32,000 bases of DNA, taken from NCBI GenBank assembly GCA_963674525.2, contig CAXXRV010000016.1, positions 12,648 to 44,647 of the forward strand. Reading direction: 5' to 3'. This DNA is from an uncultured Psychromonas sp. (GTDB taxonomy: Bacteria; Pseudomonadota; Gammaproteobacteria; Enterobacterales; Psychromonadaceae). Positions 1-10,281 of the stretch are shown here, one piece after another. The position numbers and the translations under genes were made by a program. The notes under the pieces were generated by a model. That model saw nothing but the letters and a program-made list of their open reading frames with translations, did no database searches and was not told the origin of the DNA. Within the stretch, counting starts at the first letter, position 1. Every line of letters starts with the position of its first letter.

Positions 1-64
1 CATTCTTGCGCTCGGGCATGAGCGTCTAGCAGTAGGAATCCCCCCACTAAAATCTTTGATTTAG
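1..64 (+). CDS. tnpB: 3' terminal fragment of tnpB (copy 1), 5'-truncated by the window edge; codons start at nt 2 and read ILALGHERLAVGIPPLKSLI*
   Basis: In-frame match to the C-terminus of the complete TnpB at 8352-9440 (ILALGHERLAVGIPH*). The extra C at 41-46 shifts the stop from the position equivalent to 9438-9440 to 62-64. Confidence 0.75.
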   Translation, partial: ILALGHERLAVGIPPLKSLI

Positions 65-81
65 TGGAGGGAGGATGTCAA
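1..81 (+). mobile_element. Right end (RE) of a second copy of the tnpB-only IS200/IS605-family element; the body of this copy lies left of the window
   Basis: nt 1-81 align with 9392-9471 (2 substitutions and one 1-nt C-tract indel). Identity stops abruptly after GGATGTCAA in both copies. Subterminal hairpin CCACTAAA (44-51) / TTTAGTGG (60-67). Confidence 0.85.
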
Positions 82-247
82 TCTGGGAAAGATTGTAAGG
101 CAAGGCTAAAAACAGTAGCAGTGCCGCTGCTTGAAGGATTGCACGCATCAATAGCGAACATTACGCAGCTAAGTATGAAAAAGGATTTATAATATAGTTA
201 ATTAACTTTCAACAAGCATATTTATAGTAATTGCTAGGATTTATACC

Positions 248-2765: not shown

Positions 2766-5279
2766 TTAATCGAGTGGCTTGAAGTAGACCAGAAGCAGCG
2801 GCAGCAAGGTCAGATTGGCCAGCAGCGCGACCAGCATCGAAAAGCCGGTTAACAGGCCGAAATAGATGGTTGGAATAAAATTGGACAGGGCAAGAATGGA
2901 AAATCCCAATATAACAGTGACCGAAGTGTAATAGATAGCACGTCCGATACTGCCGTGGCAGTGTCGGACGGCACGCCAGTAGTTTTTATGCTGATGGTAT
3001 TCAGCGATAAAGCGGTGCACATAATGAATGGCGTCATCCACCGCGATGCCAATGCAGATTGCCGCTATGGTAATGGTCATCAAATCTAGCGGGATATTCA
3101 GCCAGCCCATCAGCCCCAGTACCATGGCTGCCGCAACCAAGTTAGGTACCAGGGTGATGGCTGCTATTTTGAGATCTCTGAAGAGCAGCGTAAACATCAT
3201 AAAGATCGCCACAAAAACCACGCCTATGGTCAAGATTTGCGAGCGAAACAAACTCTGCAGCATATTGTTGTACAGCACCACCATGCCGGTCAGGTGCACC
3301 TGCTCATTATCCATTGCCAGCTCACCGGTCAGATGTTGACGGATCTTCTCTAACAGGTCATTGCGCTGCAAAGACAGATCTGATTCAAAGACCCGCAGGC
3401 TGAATCTAAGCTGCTGAGCATCCTTTGACAGATAGGGAGTAAACAAAATCTCCTTGATATCATCCGGCAGCTTCTTATACAGGACGGAGAGGAAGAAGTT
3501 GTCATCAAGCACACGCGGATCTAAAGTCCCCAATATTTCCATGCTGGCGGCAAGAGAAAGCACCTTGCCCGATTCTGGCAAGCCATCGAGATAATCGTGG
3601 ATGGCTGCAACTTCCTGCAATTCTGCCGTGTTGAACCAGTAACTGCGAGCGGTAATCCCCTTGTCTTCGTCTGCTTGCGGCTCAAATTCTGCCGGATCAA
3701 AACCTAACTCTTCCAGCAGCTGGGCTTCTTCACTTCCTAGTTGCTGTTCATTGTCTTTAAAAAAAGTGGCCGGCGCGTCAATGATTATATCCAGTGGCGT
3801 AGTGCCGCCCAGTTTATGGTCGATAAGTTCCATTCCCTGATAGATCTCGGTTGATTTTTTGAAGTAATCGATAAAGCGGTTTTCTACCGTTAACATACTG
3901 ATACCTATGCTGCTAAGCAGGAACAGTAGGGCAAAGGCAGTGACGACAGCTCGGCCATGGGAGGCGATCAGTCCGGCAAGAAAAGCGGTGATCACCCCGG
4001 TGATATTGTGCTGTTCACGCGGTCGTCCCGGTTTAAGTAACATTAAGGAAGCGGGAAACAGGGTAAAGGTGATAAGAAAGGCCACGGCCATGCCTATGGT
4101 CATCATCCAGCCGAAATCGATGACCGGGCGTATATCACTGACCAGCAGAGAGGCGAATGCAACCATAGTGGTGGTGGCGGTATAAAAACAGGGCAGCAGT
4201 TTTTTCTTTACGGTTTCCAGCACCAGCGTATGCTGCGAGGCATCGGGCTGCTGCGCATGCAGCTCCTGATAACGCACAATCAGGTGAATGGTCAGCGATA
4301 AGGTAATGATCAGCAGCAGCGAAATAAAGTTGGAAGAGACCACTGTTACCGGCCAGTCGCTCAAGCCGAGAAAACCGACCATGGTTATTCCGCAAGAAAA
4401 GCAGGTAAGCAGCGGCAGCAGCACCCAGCGCAGCTTGGCGAAAGCCACCGCAAGCAGAACGATCAGAAAGGCCAGTACGCCGAGCCCGAAAGTCAGCAGG
4501 TCGTGGCGAATAAAGTCGATAGAGTCAACGGTGATCATCGGCACGCCGCCTAAATGCAGTTTTGCTCCTTGTTGGTGTTCGGCCATAATTTTGCGCACAT
4601 CGGCGATCAGGGCACTCTGCCGCTCCAGCGACGCCCTACTGTAGGCGCTAAAGCGTTCCGTGACTGATGCCAGTTCATCGCGCTGCTCTGCAGTGAGATC
4701 TGCATCGATGCGTATTTCCCGAAGCTGATTACGGCGGTTACGTAATTTATAGTAGGTCTCATCACGGCGCATATTGACTTGCAGGGCGGTCGTTCCGCCA
4801 TCCTCACTGATCAGCAGGTTCGCATAGAGGGGGCTGGCAAGCAGTTCACGGCGGGCCAGGTGCCGGTCGGTATCGGGTTGTTCCAGAGTACGGAGCGAGT
4901 CGCGGATTTCGTCCGATGGAACGCGCGGACTGTCAATCAAGGGCACATCGAGAATGCTGATCACAGCGTCGACTTCCTGCAATGCGCTCAAGCTATCGCG
5001 CAATTTCTGCAGATCGTCGAGTACGCTCTTATCAAAAAGGTCTTTATGCGGTGTGTAGGTGACGATCAGAAAGTCGTCCGAGCCATAGCGCGCCTTGATC
5101 GCGTGGTAATAATGAAGCGTTTGATCGTTTTCCAGCAGCAGCGAGTCACCGGAGGCATCGAGCCGGAATTTACTCGCATGAAAGGCGAAAAAGGTGACGA
5201 TCAGCGCGATAATCAATAACGACAGCCGAGGATGGCTTAGCAGCAGCCGATCGTAACTCTCTGCGGGGGAAAACAGCAT
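2766..5279 (-). CDS. RND-superfamily exporter of the MMPL/COG1033 type
   Basis: Two blocks of about 6 hydrophobic helices, each preceded by a large soluble loop, in an ~840-aa protein. I prefer the ATG at 5279 because GAAGGAG lies 7 nt upstream; the ORF-track start at 5312 is a TTG. Confidence 0.7.
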   Translation of the reverse strand: MLFSPAESYDRLLLSHPRLSLLIIALIVTFFAFHASKFRLDASGDSLLLENDQTLHYYHAIKARYGSDDFLIVTYTPHKDLFDKSVLDDLQKLRDSLSALQEVDAVISILDVPLIDSPRVPSDEIRDSLRTLEQPDTDRHLARRELLASPLYANLLISEDGGTTALQVNMRRDETYYKLRNRRNQLREIRIDADLTAEQRDELASVTERFSAYSRASLERQSALIADVRKIMAEHQQGAKLHLGGVPMITVDSIDFIRHDLLTFGLGVLAFLIVLLAVAFAKLRWVLLPLLTCFSCGITMVGFLGLSDWPVTVVSSNFISLLLIITLSLTIHLIVRYQELHAQQPDASQHTLVLETVKKKLLPCFYTATTTMVAFASLLVSDIRPVIDFGWMMTIGMAVAFLITFTLFPASLMLLKPGRPREQHNITGVITAFLAGLIASHGRAVVTAFALLFLLSSIGISMLTVENRFIDYFKKSTEIYQGMELIDHKLGGTTPLDIIIDAPATFFKDNEQQLGSEEAQLLEELGFDPAEFEPQADEDKGITARSYWFNTAELQEVAAIHDYLDGLPESGKVLSLAASMEILGTLDPRVLDDNFFLSVLYKKLPDDIKEILFTPYLSKDAQQLRFSLRVFESDLSLQRNDLLEKIRQHLTGELAMDNEQVHLTGMVVLYNNMLQSLFRSQILTIGVVFVAIFMMFTLLFRDLKIAAITLVPNLVAAAMVLGLMGWLNIPLDLMTITIAAICIGIAVDDAIHYVHRFIAEYHQHKNYWRAVRHCHGSIGRAIYYTSVTVILGFSILALSNFIPTIYFGLLTGFSMLVALLANLTLLPLLLVYFKPLD

Positions 5280-7610: not shown

Positions 7611-8216
7611 ATGGTGCAATGGTTACTACTATCGATATTAATAGGCGCAGCGGGATCACTGACAGCCTGCAGCAAGAGCCTTGATAAGGCCCCTGAAAAG
7701 CCCGTTTCTTTTTCGGTGAAGCTTGAGCCTGCTGCTTTTGTCGAAAATTCTGGGGCGCCTGTCGAGCTGACGGCGGCAACAGAGACACAATTATCATCTG
7801 GATTTGCACAGAGCATGCTGTCGGCCGTGAATAAGGCACGCGCGCAGGCACGTCAGTGTGGCGGCAGAAGCATGCCGGCCGTTGCCAAGCTAACCTGGAA
7901 TAAGCAACTGCAACGCGCTGCTTATATCCATTCAAGCGATATGGCGAAATATGAGTTTTTCAGCCATACCGGCTTGCAGGGCAAAGAGGTTAGCCACCGA
8001 GTTCAGGAGCAGGGCTATCGTTGGCGTGCGGTGGGAGAAAATATCAGCGCCGGGGCTGTGGATGTGCAGGCTGTTATGGCGGGATGGTTAGCCAGCCCCG
8101 GCCACTGCGCCAATATTATGAGTGCGGATTTTACAGAAATGGCCGCTGCTGTGGTCACCAATAAGGCAACCTATTATGAGCACTATTGGACGCAGGTGTT
8201 TGCAGCCCCTTTTTAA
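7611..8216 (+). CDS. CAP/SCP/PR1-like (YkwD-type) domain lipoprotein
   Basis: Lipobox LTAC after a hydrophobic stretch. The C-terminal domain carries WNKQL...AA..HS.DM, GENI and GW..SPGHCANIM, which is typical of CAP domains. The ATG at 7611 is preferred over the TTG at 7605. Confidence 0.7.
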   Translation: MVQWLLLSILIGAAGSLTACSKSLDKAPEKPVSFSVKLEPAAFVENSGAPVELTAATETQLSSGFAQSMLSAVNKARAQARQCGGRSMPAVAKLTWNKQLQRAAYIHSSDMAKYEFFSHTGLQGKEVSHRVQEQGYRWRAVGENISAGAVDVQAVMAGWLASPGHCANIMSADFTEMAAAVVTNKATYYEHYWTQVFAAPF

Positions 8217-8217
8217 C

Positions 8218-9471
8218 GAACCTTGCGGAATTCTCTACCCATAACTTGTTTGGGTGGAGATGGATAGCAAACCAGCCGTTAGGTTGGTCTATCTTAGTTG
8301 GATACACTATCATTTTTGCCTGTGTTTACATCCAGACAAATCAGGTCTACTATGATCATTATGAAAAGCAAAGTACACACAAAAACGCTAAAAACAAGGA
8401 TCCGTGATAAACATCTAAGCACCCTAAACAAATGGGCTTACGGTGTGAATCAGGTGTGGAATTTTTGCAATGAAACGGCGATGAAGGCACTGAGCAATGT
8501 CAGTGAATTTGGCCCGGTAAAACCCGCTTTCCTGTCTGGTTATGATCTCCAAAAACACACTAAAGGCATGAATAAAACGCTTGGCCTGAATTCTGCGACC
8601 GTGCAGATGGTTGGGCATGAATATGCCACCCGTCGCAAACAATTCAAGAAATACAGATTGAATTGGCGTAAGTCAGGAGGGGTTAGACGTTCACTGGGTT
8701 GGATCCCGGTTCGTAAAGACTGTATTAGCTTCAAAAATGGTCAGGTTTATCATAACCGCCACTATTTTAGCGTTTGGGATAGTTACGGATTATCTCAATA
8801 CACGTTCAAATCAGGATCATTCAATGAGGATTCAAGAGGCCGGTGGTACTTCAATGTTGTGGTTGAGGTGGAAGCAGAGCAGGGTACAGGCAAAGCCAGT
8901 GTGGGTATTGATTTGGGTTGTAAAGAAACAGCCACCGACAGTAACGGCTACAAACTAAAAGGCCGTGAATACCGCGAGCTAGAAAAAAGTTTAGGCATCG
9001 CACAACGGGCAAAGAACAAAAAGCGCGCAAAAGCGATCCATGCAAAGATAAAAAACCGCAGAGTAGATGCTTTGCATAAATACAGCCGCAAACTTGTCAA
9101 TGAAAATGCGGCGATATTCATTGGCAACGTAAGCAGTCAAAAACTGGTCAAGACTAAAATGGCTAAGTCCGTTTTAGATGCGGGCTGGTCTACATTAAAA
9201 ACACTATTGGAATACAAAAGCGCTCACGCTGGTATTGTTTTTGAAGAAATCAATGAATCGTACACCACCCAAACTTGCTCGTGTTGTGGCTCTCGCCAAA
9301 ACAGTCCGAAAGGTAGAGCAGGACTTGGAATAAGAGAATGGACCTGTGAGTGTGGTGTCACTCACGACCGCGATGTGAACGCGGCCAAAAACATTCTTGC
9401 GCTCGGGCATGAGCGTCTGGCGGTAGGAATCCCCCACTAAAATCTTTGATTTAGTGGAGGGAGGATGTCAA
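8218..9471 (+). mobile_element. Non-autonomous IS200/IS605-family element (IS1341-like, tnpB only). The right boundary is exact; the left boundary is approximate.
   Basis: The right boundary is defined by loss of identity with copy 1 after TCAA (9471). The left-end region has hairpin ACCCA (8237-8241) / TGGGT (8251-8255) followed by GGAGATGGATAGCAA. This resembles the right end: hairpin, then GGAGGGAGGATGTCAA. No tnpA (Y1 transposase) ORF is adjacent. Confidence 0.75.
8352..9440 (+). CDS. tnpB: TnpB-family RNA-guided endonuclease-like protein (IS605 OrfB / IS1341 type)
   Basis: RuvC-I GIDLG (D at 8910-8912), zinc finger CSCCG...CECG, RuvC-III HDRDVNAAKNI (9363-9395), and the DAGW...LEYK block. 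The start is uncertain (ATG at 8352 or 8361); the ORF-track start at 8298 would lie in the left end. Confidence 0.85.
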   Translation: MIIMKSKVHTKTLKTRIRDKHLSTLNKWAYGVNQVWNFCNETAMKALSNVSEFGPVKPAFLSGYDLQKHTKGMNKTLGLNSATVQMVGHEYATRRKQFKKYRLNWRKSGGVRRSLGWIPVRKDCISFKNGQVYHNRHYFSVWDSYGLSQYTFKSGSFNEDSRGRWYFNVVVEVEAEQGTGKASVGIDLGCKETATDSNGYKLKGREYRELEKSLGIAQRAKNKKRAKAIHAKIKNRRVDALHKYSRKLVNENAAIFIGNVSSQKLVKTKMAKSVLDAGWSTLKTLLEYKSAHAGIVFEEINESYTTQTCSCCGSRQNSPKGRAGLGIREWTCECGVTHDRDVNAAKNILALGHERLAVGIPH

Positions 9472-9491
9472 CTCAGTGCACTGTTAGTAAA
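9330..9491 (+). ncRNA. Putative omegaRNA (reRNA). The scaffold overlaps the tnpB 3' end and the right end. The predicted guide is about 9472-9491 (ctcagtgcactgttagtaaa).
   Basis: By analogy with characterised TnpB systems, the scaffold ends at the right-end boundary and the guide is the flanking DNA. The hairpin 9434-9441/9450-9457 can extend by CCC/GGG across an A bulge. The 5' limit is a guess and there is no transcript evidence. Confidence 0.4.
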
Positions 9492-9504
9492 AAGGAAAGA
9501 TTCT

Positions 9505-10281
9505 ATGGAAAGCTACCAAGCGTTGTTGAGCACCTTAGCCTTGACGATGGGCGCCTCATGGGCCAGCGGCATCAATCTATATGCCGCGCTGCTGGTGTTA
9601 GGTTTAGGCGGGGCGAGCGGTAATATAGATCTACCTTCCGGGCTTGAGGTGCTTGAAAATCCGCTAGTGATAGGTGCAGCAGGGCTGATGTATTTTGTTG
9701 AGTTTTTTGTCGATAAAACGCCGGGGGTAGACAGCGGCTGGGATGCAATTTCTACCTTTATTCGCTTGCCGGCCGGTGCCATGTTAGCGGCAGGCGCTGT
9801 CGGCGAGGTGACGCCTGCACTCGAGATTGCCGCCGCTATTATGGGCGGCGGGTTAGCCGCCACCAGTCATGCGACTAAAGCAGGAACGCGGCTACTGATT
9901 AATACCTCTCCTGAGCCGCTAACTAACTGGACGGCATCGATCAGCGAAGATCTGCTGGTGCTTGCTGGACTTTGGACTGCGCTTAATCATCCGCTGGTTT
10001 TTATTGTTCTGCTGCTGATATTTATTATACTGGCGATTTTGCTTTTGCCTAAGTTATGGCGCTTTATTAAATTGCTGTTTCGTAAAATTGCGCAATTTAT
10101 AGGTTTGCTTGAAAAAGATAAAGTCATAGCAGCTGGCGTCGAGGGAGGTGTAACGCATGAGCAATTGCAGGCTTTACGCAGGCAAGGCGTGTTAAGTGAG
10201 AAGGAGTTTAATGCCGCTAAACAGAGGTTGCAGCAAAATCACCAGGCACAGGGTAAAGAGAATGGCAGTTCCAAGGATTAA
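9505..10281 (+). CDS. DUF4126-like membrane protein with a C-terminal SHOCT-like motif
   Basis: GINLYAALLVLGL...VEFFVDKTPGVDSGWD...RLPAGA matches the DUF4126 pattern as I recall it. The C-terminus GVLSEKEFNAAKQRL resembles SHOCT. The ATG at 9505 has AAAGGAAAG upstream. Confidence 0.6.
   Translation: MESYQALLSTLALTMGASWASGINLYAALLVLGLGGASGNIDLPSGLEVLENPLVIGAAGLMYFVEFFVDKTPGVDSGWDAISTFIRLPAGAMLAAGAVGEVTPALEIAAAIMGGGLAATSHATKAGTRLLINTSPEPLTNWTASISEDLLVLAGLWTALNHPLVFIVLLLIFIILAILLLPKLWRFIKLLFRKIAQFIGLLEKDKVIAAGVEGGVTHEQLQALRRQGVLSEKEFNAAKQRLQQNHQAQGKENGSSKD

Follow-up and report, generated by a model that had tools for sequence, protein, structure and literature searches.

We analysed a window of 32,000 nt from the genome of an uncultured Psychromonas sp. 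(contig CAXXRV010000016.1 of GenBank assembly GCA_963674525.2; G000:C16:12648-44647 in our numbering). The whole assembly, G000, comprises 3.56 Mb in 30 contigs. Positions 8217-9471 of the window hold a transposon of the IS200/IS605 family that lacks tnpA and encodes only TnpB. In all probability (roughly 80%), this element is moved as single-stranded DNA by a TnpA acting in trans and is maintained through homing by a TnpB-omegaRNA complex. The element is of an ordinary, already known kind, but its features are very well resolved.

A BLAST search of the whole genome using the element as query returned 77 pieces, from which 50 left ends and 53 right ends were resolved. All 53 right ends terminate in ...GGATGTCAA, corresponding to window position 9471, and the flanks beyond are unrelated. 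An earlier note on this DNA had placed the right boundary at 9471 by comparing positions 1-81 of the window with 9392-9471, and the genome-wide collection of copies bore this out. These two stretches differ by two substitutions and a one-base indel in a C-tract, and their similarity stops right after TCAA. All 50 left ends start with TTTAAC, with three single-base variants among them. Left and right ends could be joined into 46 pairs, mostly 1260 bp long when counted from the first T of TTTAA, which total 62 kb or 1.7% of the genome.

The left junction was determined from empty insertion sites. In G011, the closest species sampled, whose DUF4126 gene is about 88% identical to that of G000, the genes for the CAP-domain protein (upstream of the element in G000) and the DUF4126 protein (downstream) are adjacent without the element, and the junction reads ...CCCCTTTTTAA followed by C. 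The empty site CAATTTAA/GGTTATAG on contig C29 of G000 corresponds to an occupied copy in G011 (start TTTAAT/GAATC, right flank gggtatag), and the empty site GTTGTTTAA/GGGTATTC on contig C21 corresponds to a G011 copy with the right flank gggcattc. Two left flanks from G011 led to G000 sites with TTTAA followed by G or T, never C. In the empty sites, TTTAA is directly joined to the right flank and a target duplication is absent; at the right end there is no TTTAA repeat, the terminal pentamer being GTCAA. Therefore, the junction lies at 8216/8217, the element starts with C8217, and TTTAA (8212-8216) is the target that was present before an insertion that made no duplication. The earlier note had the left junction in the right place but one base off (near 8217/8218), and its motif TTAAC has to be replaced by TTTAA, of which we counted 20,566 sites in the genome. 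It had correctly seen the stop codon of the CAP-domain gene at the junction. This TAA (8214-8216) is part of the target and not of the element; the gene is intact after the insertion, and the same stop is found at the G011 empty site. Paralogous sites within G000 were also tried as empty sites. Only the C10 copy sits in a repeat, and the paralogues of this repeat, about 80-89% identical with indels, leave the junction ambiguous, so the comparisons with the sister species are decisive instead.

Three hallmarks of the IS200/IS605 family were found, namely a Y1 TnpA encoded by some copies of the element, subterminal hairpins without terminal inverted repeats, and TTTAA-specific insertion without duplication. 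The left-end and right-end hairpins are conserved in all copies and covary in relatives. Both had been proposed in the earlier note, which assumed an IS608-like spacing of 19 nt on the left, where we found 15 nt, and read a distance of 14 nt on the right, which becomes 9 nt with the extended stem. In IS608 of Helicobacter pylori the spacings are 19 nt (left) and 10 nt (right), and its right end finishes in TCAA, as here. IS608 further resembles the present element in its subterminal hairpins, the lack of inverted repeats and target duplication, and insertion 3' of a short T-rich motif, which is TTAC in IS608 and TTTAA here.

As the earlier note stated, no tnpA is present between 8217 and 9471. 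Fourteen matches to the Y1 transposase family PF01797 were found in the genome, four of which lie within copies of this element (C10:93301-94917, C13:67173-68785, C24:417838-419453 and C26:303849-305464). In these full copies, a 385-bp segment on the strand opposite to tnpB stands in place of 29 nt of the short form, resulting in 1.6-kb IS605-type elements with ends identical to those of the tnpB-only form. The divergent tnpA, located between the left end and tnpB, is intact in all four and encodes a protein of 132 aa (143 bits to PF01797) with an HIH motif and a C-terminal Tyr, whereas the genes of IS608 are co-oriented. Because four copies with the same ends carry an intact Y1 tnpA, the tnpB-only copies represent derivatives without tnpA, open to mobilisation in trans. 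Thus, "tnpB-only" denotes one element after a deletion rather than a lineage of its own. The designation "IS1341-like" in the earlier note holds as an operational label only: as in the IS1341 group of ISfinder, tnpB stands alone between IS605-type ends in this copy and about 40 others, but unlike that group as a lineage, the same genome contains the tnpA-carrying form. Pairs of tnpB-only copies at different loci differ by 1, 2, 2, 3 and 5 nt of 1260, and these copies have moved recently. Two of the four full copies are 99.5% identical to each other, and each comparable insertion site is occupied in only one of the two species.

The open reading frame (ORF) of the element matched PF07282 (Cas12f1-like TNB, 5e-24) and PF01385 (OrfB_IS605, 1e-8) in Pfam, and its best sequence match in the PDB was the TnpB of ISDra2 (1e-20) from Deinococcus radiodurans, although the identity is only about 20%. 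An AlphaFold2 model was calculated using 23 family sequences as input, with a predicted local distance difference test score (pLDDT) of 76 and a predicted template modelling score (pTM) of 0.54. The top Foldseek matches of the model were ISFba1 TnpB, ISDra2 TnpB (8h1j, the second best), Cas12f and Fanzor2, with E values of 1e-17 to 1e-13 and template modelling scores of about 0.5. Domain matches, PDB match and predicted fold thus agree with the earlier identification of the ORF as TnpB, with the WED/REC/RuvC fold and a zinc ribbon that contains the cysteines C309/C312 and C332/C334.

The canonical catalytic glutamate of RuvC-II appears to be relocated in this protein. In a HMMER alignment, the catalytic E278 of ISDra2 TnpB lies opposite Gly258, and Gly258 and Asn259 occupy the E278 site. 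Among 59 family members there is no variation at D187, G258, E302 and D341, and E302 is exactly six residues before C309xxC312, a spacing that is likewise invariant. In the model, G258 ends the strand 252-258, and E302 is located just after the next strand, 296-300. A class of rearranged RuvC-II with a Glu-to-Gly change and the Glu shifted to the neighbouring strand has been described (PMC10691335), and ExxxxxxCxxC is the published "alternative glutamate" ("Ealt") signature (PMC10711439). The residue pattern fits a TnpB of the relocated-glutamate class with the putative triad D187/E302/D341, and the modelled placement of E302 agrees with the described shift. Since the RuvC-I motif is DLG, the protein appears to belong to the Ealt D-Phi-G group and not to the DPG pro-Fanzor group. 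By residue signature it can be likened to the "RIIr-5" E-to-G clade (PMC10691335) and the "Ealt" D-Phi-G clade (PMC10711439), which also have Gly at the canonical Glu position, a Glu located six residues ahead of the first CxxC, and a D-hydrophobic-G motif in RuvC-I. The TnpB here keeps DRDxN in RuvC-III and is associated with a Y1 TnpA, whereas pro-Fanzors are associated with the IS607 serine recombinase. We also considered ISFba1 TnpB as a precedent for a relocated Glu. However, its Glu is spaced like that of the canonical ISDra2 protein (D194, E290, D371; PMC11061315), and it is therefore no precedent.

The tnpB gene is under strong purifying selection across the copies of this one genome. 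The ORF is intact in 33 of the 46 paired copies, ending 31 nt before the right end, and 31 intact copies gave a pN/pS ratio of nonsynonymous to synonymous diversity of 0.11 (mean pN 0.018, pS 0.161). Codons 1-120 and 201-240 have a synonymous diversity of 0.19-0.30, and those between them have 0.09-0.18; the value drops to 0.086 at codons 281-320 and to 0.034 at codons 321-359. The 60 nt at the left end of the element and the 300 nt at its right end have the lowest nucleotide diversity. The synonymous dip at the 3' end is the pattern expected from an overlapping functional nucleic-acid element, consistent with an omegaRNA scaffold.

We then used relatives of the element from other bacteria. 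A total of 462 relatives were found in genome contigs, and 80 with 57-78% protein identity, from Gamma- and Betaproteobacteria, were kept. They can be aligned well over the last ~130 nt, and the GTCAA terminus is present in almost all aligned sequences. RNAalifold predicted a 5-bp long-range helix that encloses a 7-bp stem, a 3-bp stem and the right-end hairpin. A total of 59 matches were aligned with a covariance model, R1. Over 22 pairs, 96.6% of the cells are paired, compared with 80.6% in shuffled alignments, and the covariation score is 0.455, compared with 0.155 in shuffles (0 of 500 reach 0.455) and at most 0.08 with slid partners; because the R1 alignment was fitted to the model, these values somewhat favour the structure. 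In the 7-bp stem, compensatory changes are strong and the G.U closing pairs are conserved; the latter are consistent with an RNA that has the same sense as tnpB. The long-range helix joins positions -100 to -96 with -7 to -3 from the end, its changes being C-G/U-G and G-U/A-U/G-C only. The right-end hairpin, which has a short version with a CUUUAG loop in most relatives, is likely to act both as the TnpA recognition hairpin in single-stranded DNA and as the guide-proximal stem of the omegaRNA. The hairpin at 9282-9303 is a possible 5' part of the scaffold. In this copy, the pseudoknot strand is surrounded by a local stem, CCGCG/CGCGG, which by eye is not conserved in the relatives and was excluded from the model. 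The covarying stems and the suppressed synonymous variation together support the reading that the last ~127-190 nt of the element, almost wholly inside the tnpB ORF, are a putative omegaRNA scaffold.

The geometry of this predicted scaffold resembles that of ISDra2, where a pseudoknot joins -5 to -3 with -105 to -103 (PMC10097598). The guide-proximal stem of ISDra2 has a UUUA-type loop, which is also seen in most relatives here. ISDra2 likewise combines a Y1 TnpA with TnpB and uses a pentanucleotide target that doubles as the transposon-associated motif (TAM), which is TTGAT in ISDra2 and is predicted to be TTTAA here. Its omegaRNA comes from the 3' end of tnpB together with the right end, and its guide begins with the first base of the flank, as may be the case here. 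Unlike in ISDra2, the predicted scaffold lies almost wholly within the ORF, whose stop codon is 31 nt from the end; the tnpA of the full copies is divergent; and G258 with the relocated E302 stands in place of the canonical E278. In IS200/IS605 TnpB systems the boundary of the transposon is also the end of the scaffold (PMC10711439). The flanks at 82-101 and 9472-9491, which the earlier note had offered as guides, are at the positions expected for guides of the presumed omegaRNA. A genome-wide search found no second match in the genome for any of the 53 16-nt right flanks.

The following cycle is proposed from published work on related elements. As inferred from IS608 and ISDra2, the Y1 (HUH) TnpA from the four full-length copies would move the element as single-stranded DNA. 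It would recognise the subterminal hairpins at 8232-8260 and 9430-9462 and cleave the top strand 3' of TTTAA at the left end and 3' of TCAA at the right end. Insertion would then take place 3' of a different TTTAA, with no target duplication. The last ~130-190 nt would be transcribed together with 16-20 nt of flank to give the omegaRNA. After excision, the donor site would consist of TTTAA and the flank, i.e., the TAM and a match to the guide as in published TnpB work. TnpB-omegaRNA would cut this empty donor, and recombination with the sister chromosome would restore the copy, while the occupied site, with GTCAA before the flank, would not be cut. In the IS605-type TnpB7 of Sulfolobus islandicus, the insertion site TTTAA has been experimentally shown to be the functional TAM, and the terminal pentamer TTCAC, which differs from the TAM, protects the occupied site (PMC11043419); the corresponding TAM and pentamer here would be TTTAA and GTCAA. 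TnpB7 is from an archaeal thermophile and has an unrelated scaffold sequence.

Several observations weigh against parts of this interpretation. The canonical RuvC-II Glu is absent and replaced by an invariant Gly258, the 2023 survey called the activity of relocated-Glu, Y1-associated bacterial TnpBs untested (PMC10691335), and the structure model is of moderate quality. In the long-range pairing, a change on both sides occurs only once, in one of the five pairs, and the other four show one-sided changes. Binding of TnpA to single-stranded DNA also requires the right-end hairpin to covary, so that its covariation is partly not RNA-specific. Synonymous diversity is also low at codons 161-200 (0.088), and the 3' dip is thus not unique. 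A permissive search of Rfam found no matching family for 8100-9600; the predicted scaffold is not RAGATH-18 or another curated family.

Y1 transposases need a subterminal hairpin, as established for IS608. The structured 3' region could thus be only the single-stranded DNA right end for TnpA, with no guide RNA and with another role, or none, for TnpB, and the covariation of the right-end hairpin would follow from DNA pairing alone. We consider this very improbable: the covarying stems and the long-range pairing reach ~100-190 nt from the end, far past the TnpA-binding hairpin, and the conserved G.U closing pairs would correspond to C.A in the opposite strand and to weak G.T pairs in DNA. The pairing geometry also agrees with that of the solved ISDra2 omegaRNA pseudoknot (PMC10097598), and TnpB is under strong purifying selection.

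For want of the canonical RuvC-II Glu, TnpB might be catalytically dead or repurposed, e.g., as a TldR-like RNA-guided repressor; Gly258 and Asn259 stand at the E278 site, and nuclease-dead TnpB derivatives are known (10.1101/2023.11.30.569447). However, the invariant E302 lies six residues before CxxC as in the published signature (PMC10711439) and, in the model, just after the strand next to that of G258, as described for the class (PMC10691335). D187 and D341 likewise do not vary, tnpB belongs to a mobile, multi-copy transposon whose ends are intact and not to a fixed locus, and Fanzors with the same arrangement have been reported as RNA-programmable DNA endonucleases (PMC10530073), which makes a dead or repurposed TnpB very improbable. 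It seems just as unlikely that the family is now inactive in this genome and that the copies are relics of old bursts with purely historical boundaries. The median difference among copies (57 of 1260 nt), the broken ORF in 13 of 46 copies and the interruption of five copies by another insertion sequence (IS) would favour such a view, but pairs at different loci are only 1-5 nt apart, tnpA is intact in four copies of which two are nearly identical, and comparable sites are occupied in one species and empty in the other. The interpretation as a mobile transposon with a homing TnpB-omegaRNA is therefore preferred, and the features it comprises are collected in Table 1.

Table 1. Coordinates of the element, its predicted RNA structures and related features in the window
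Feature	Position	Strand	Remarks
Last 81 nt of neighbouring copy (tnpB 3' end and right end)	1..81	+	Copy G000:C16:11468-12728; TCAA end at 81; match to covariance model R1, 69 bits
Predicted guide, neighbouring copy	82..101	+	Flank directly 3' of right end, unrelated to other copies; by analogy with IS200/IS605 TnpB systems
TTTAA target and predicted TAM	8212..8216	+	Empty sites; conserved 5' of 50 left ends; also at the Shewanella plasmid relative
Transposon, tnpB-only form	8217..9471	+	1255 bp; BLAST copies and empty sites
Left-end subterminal hairpin	8232..8260	+	10-bp stem, one T.G in this copy, 9-nt loop; 15 nt from left junction
GGAGATGGATAGCAA box	8256..8270	+	Overlaps and follows left hairpin; GATGGATAGC kept in distant relatives
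tnpB ORF	8352..9440	+	362 aa; start 8361 (359 aa) common to tnpA-carrying copies
TnpB key residues			D187, G258 (canonical RuvC-II position), E302 (relocated Glu), C309/C312, C332/C334, D341
Predicted hairpin over first zinc-finger CxxC codons	9282..9303	+	Per-sequence folds; in nearly all 37 relatives, sequences differ
Predicted hairpin over second zinc-finger codons	9345..9366	+	Per-sequence folds; in most relatives, sequences differ
GAUGU, 5' strand of predicted long-range pseudoknot-like pairing	9372..9376	+	Pairs with 9465-9469; 94% of cells paired
Predicted 7-bp stem	9399..9416	+	9399-9405 with 9410-9416, loop GGCA; 99.5% paired; four pairs with two-sided changes
Predicted 3-bp stem	9417..9426	+	9417-9419 with 9424-9426; compensatory changes
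Right-end subterminal hairpin, extended stem	9430..9462	+	9 nt from end; covaries in relatives
AUGUC (3' strand of long-range pairing), then AA	9465..9471	+	TCAA at 9468-9471, predicted right-end cleavage site
Predicted guide, this copy	9472..9491	+	First 16-20 nt of flank; in DUF4126 gene leader; unique in genome; by analogy

The neighbouring copy whose end opens the window (G000:C16:11468-12728) has one additional C in the C-tract at the base of the right-end hairpin, which shifts the C-terminus of its TnpB; its ORF has 367 aa, and the stop is 17 nt from the end, compared with 31 nt. Five copies of the element carry an IS1595-like IS (1031 bp, a 315-aa transposase, inverted repeats starting with GGCGGTGTTCCC, 8-bp duplications, 10 near-identical copies in all). 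These five (G000:C26:320793-321823, C24:166432-167462, C5:179132-180162, C5:12054-13083 and C21:313736-314766) are inserted in both orientations at one 8-bp site, GTTTACAT, equivalent to window 8324-8331, which overlaps the -35-like hexamer of a weak promoter-like match (8325-8353) upstream of tnpB. The other targets of this IS have a CTG-N8-CAG-like context in common. A composite "IS inside IS" moving as a unit was rejected: the inner IS occurs in both orientations and is more alike (about 99-100% identity) than the hosts (about 97%), and the insertions are therefore independent. The copy at G000:C4:49133-50612 contains a 209-bp insert in the same left-end region, with terminal inverted repeats CAAGGGCTATCC... 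and the look of a miniature inverted-repeat transposable element. In G011, a miniature derivative of 402 bp (L055, G011:C229, ~3916-4317) consists of 88 nt of the left end and the last 284 nt; the predicted scaffold region is retained, and the remainder of tnpB is gone.

More distant IS605-type elements were found at G000:C4:52579-54127, C12:55703-56416, C22:28492-30010 and C24:462998-463672, with 72-78% DNA identity in tnpB, some of which have their own Y1 tnpA. Weaker PF01797 matches (about 50-60 bits) in open frames of ~180 aa are located at C29:90964-91248 and 92699-92983 and at C4:41168-41398 and 46968-47243. A relative on a conjugative Shewanella plasmid, 72% identical, starts with TTTAA/CGAAAT... 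and ends with ...GGATGTCAA. For distant relatives, BLAST misregistered the left boundary because hairpin lengths differ. Apart from the TTTAA of the Shewanella plasmid copy, their TAMs (TTTAA, TTTAC, TTAT or TTAC-like) are thus tentative readings by eye. Relatives at 60-80% DNA identity occur in 244 plasmid records, of which 169 are from Klebsiella and most are conjugative; the element family therefore travels on plasmids.

The TnpB transposon family is widespread, occurring in Gamma- and Betaproteobacteria and on conjugative plasmids, and it is now described to the base: ends, target and predicted TAM, scaffold model, native guides, and autonomous and non-autonomous forms. Its interest lies in the combination of a Y1 transposase with a putative relocated-Glu TnpB, in about 50 copies under purifying selection. 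Judged from sequence, the chances are about even that this is a thriving Y1-TnpA-associated TnpB of that class whose TAM (TTTAA), scaffold and 53 native guides are all defined. According to the 2023 survey, the biochemical consequences of the relocated-Glu arrangement are still to be studied (PMC10691335). If RNA-guided cleavage and homing hold true, the element would be a tractable bacterial IS605 example of relocated-Glu catalysis, and its 359-aa TnpB would be an editor candidate with an AT-rich TAM. It is no new kind of system, but as a well-annotated and successful natural TnpB of the putative relocated-Glu class, it would be a convenient test system.

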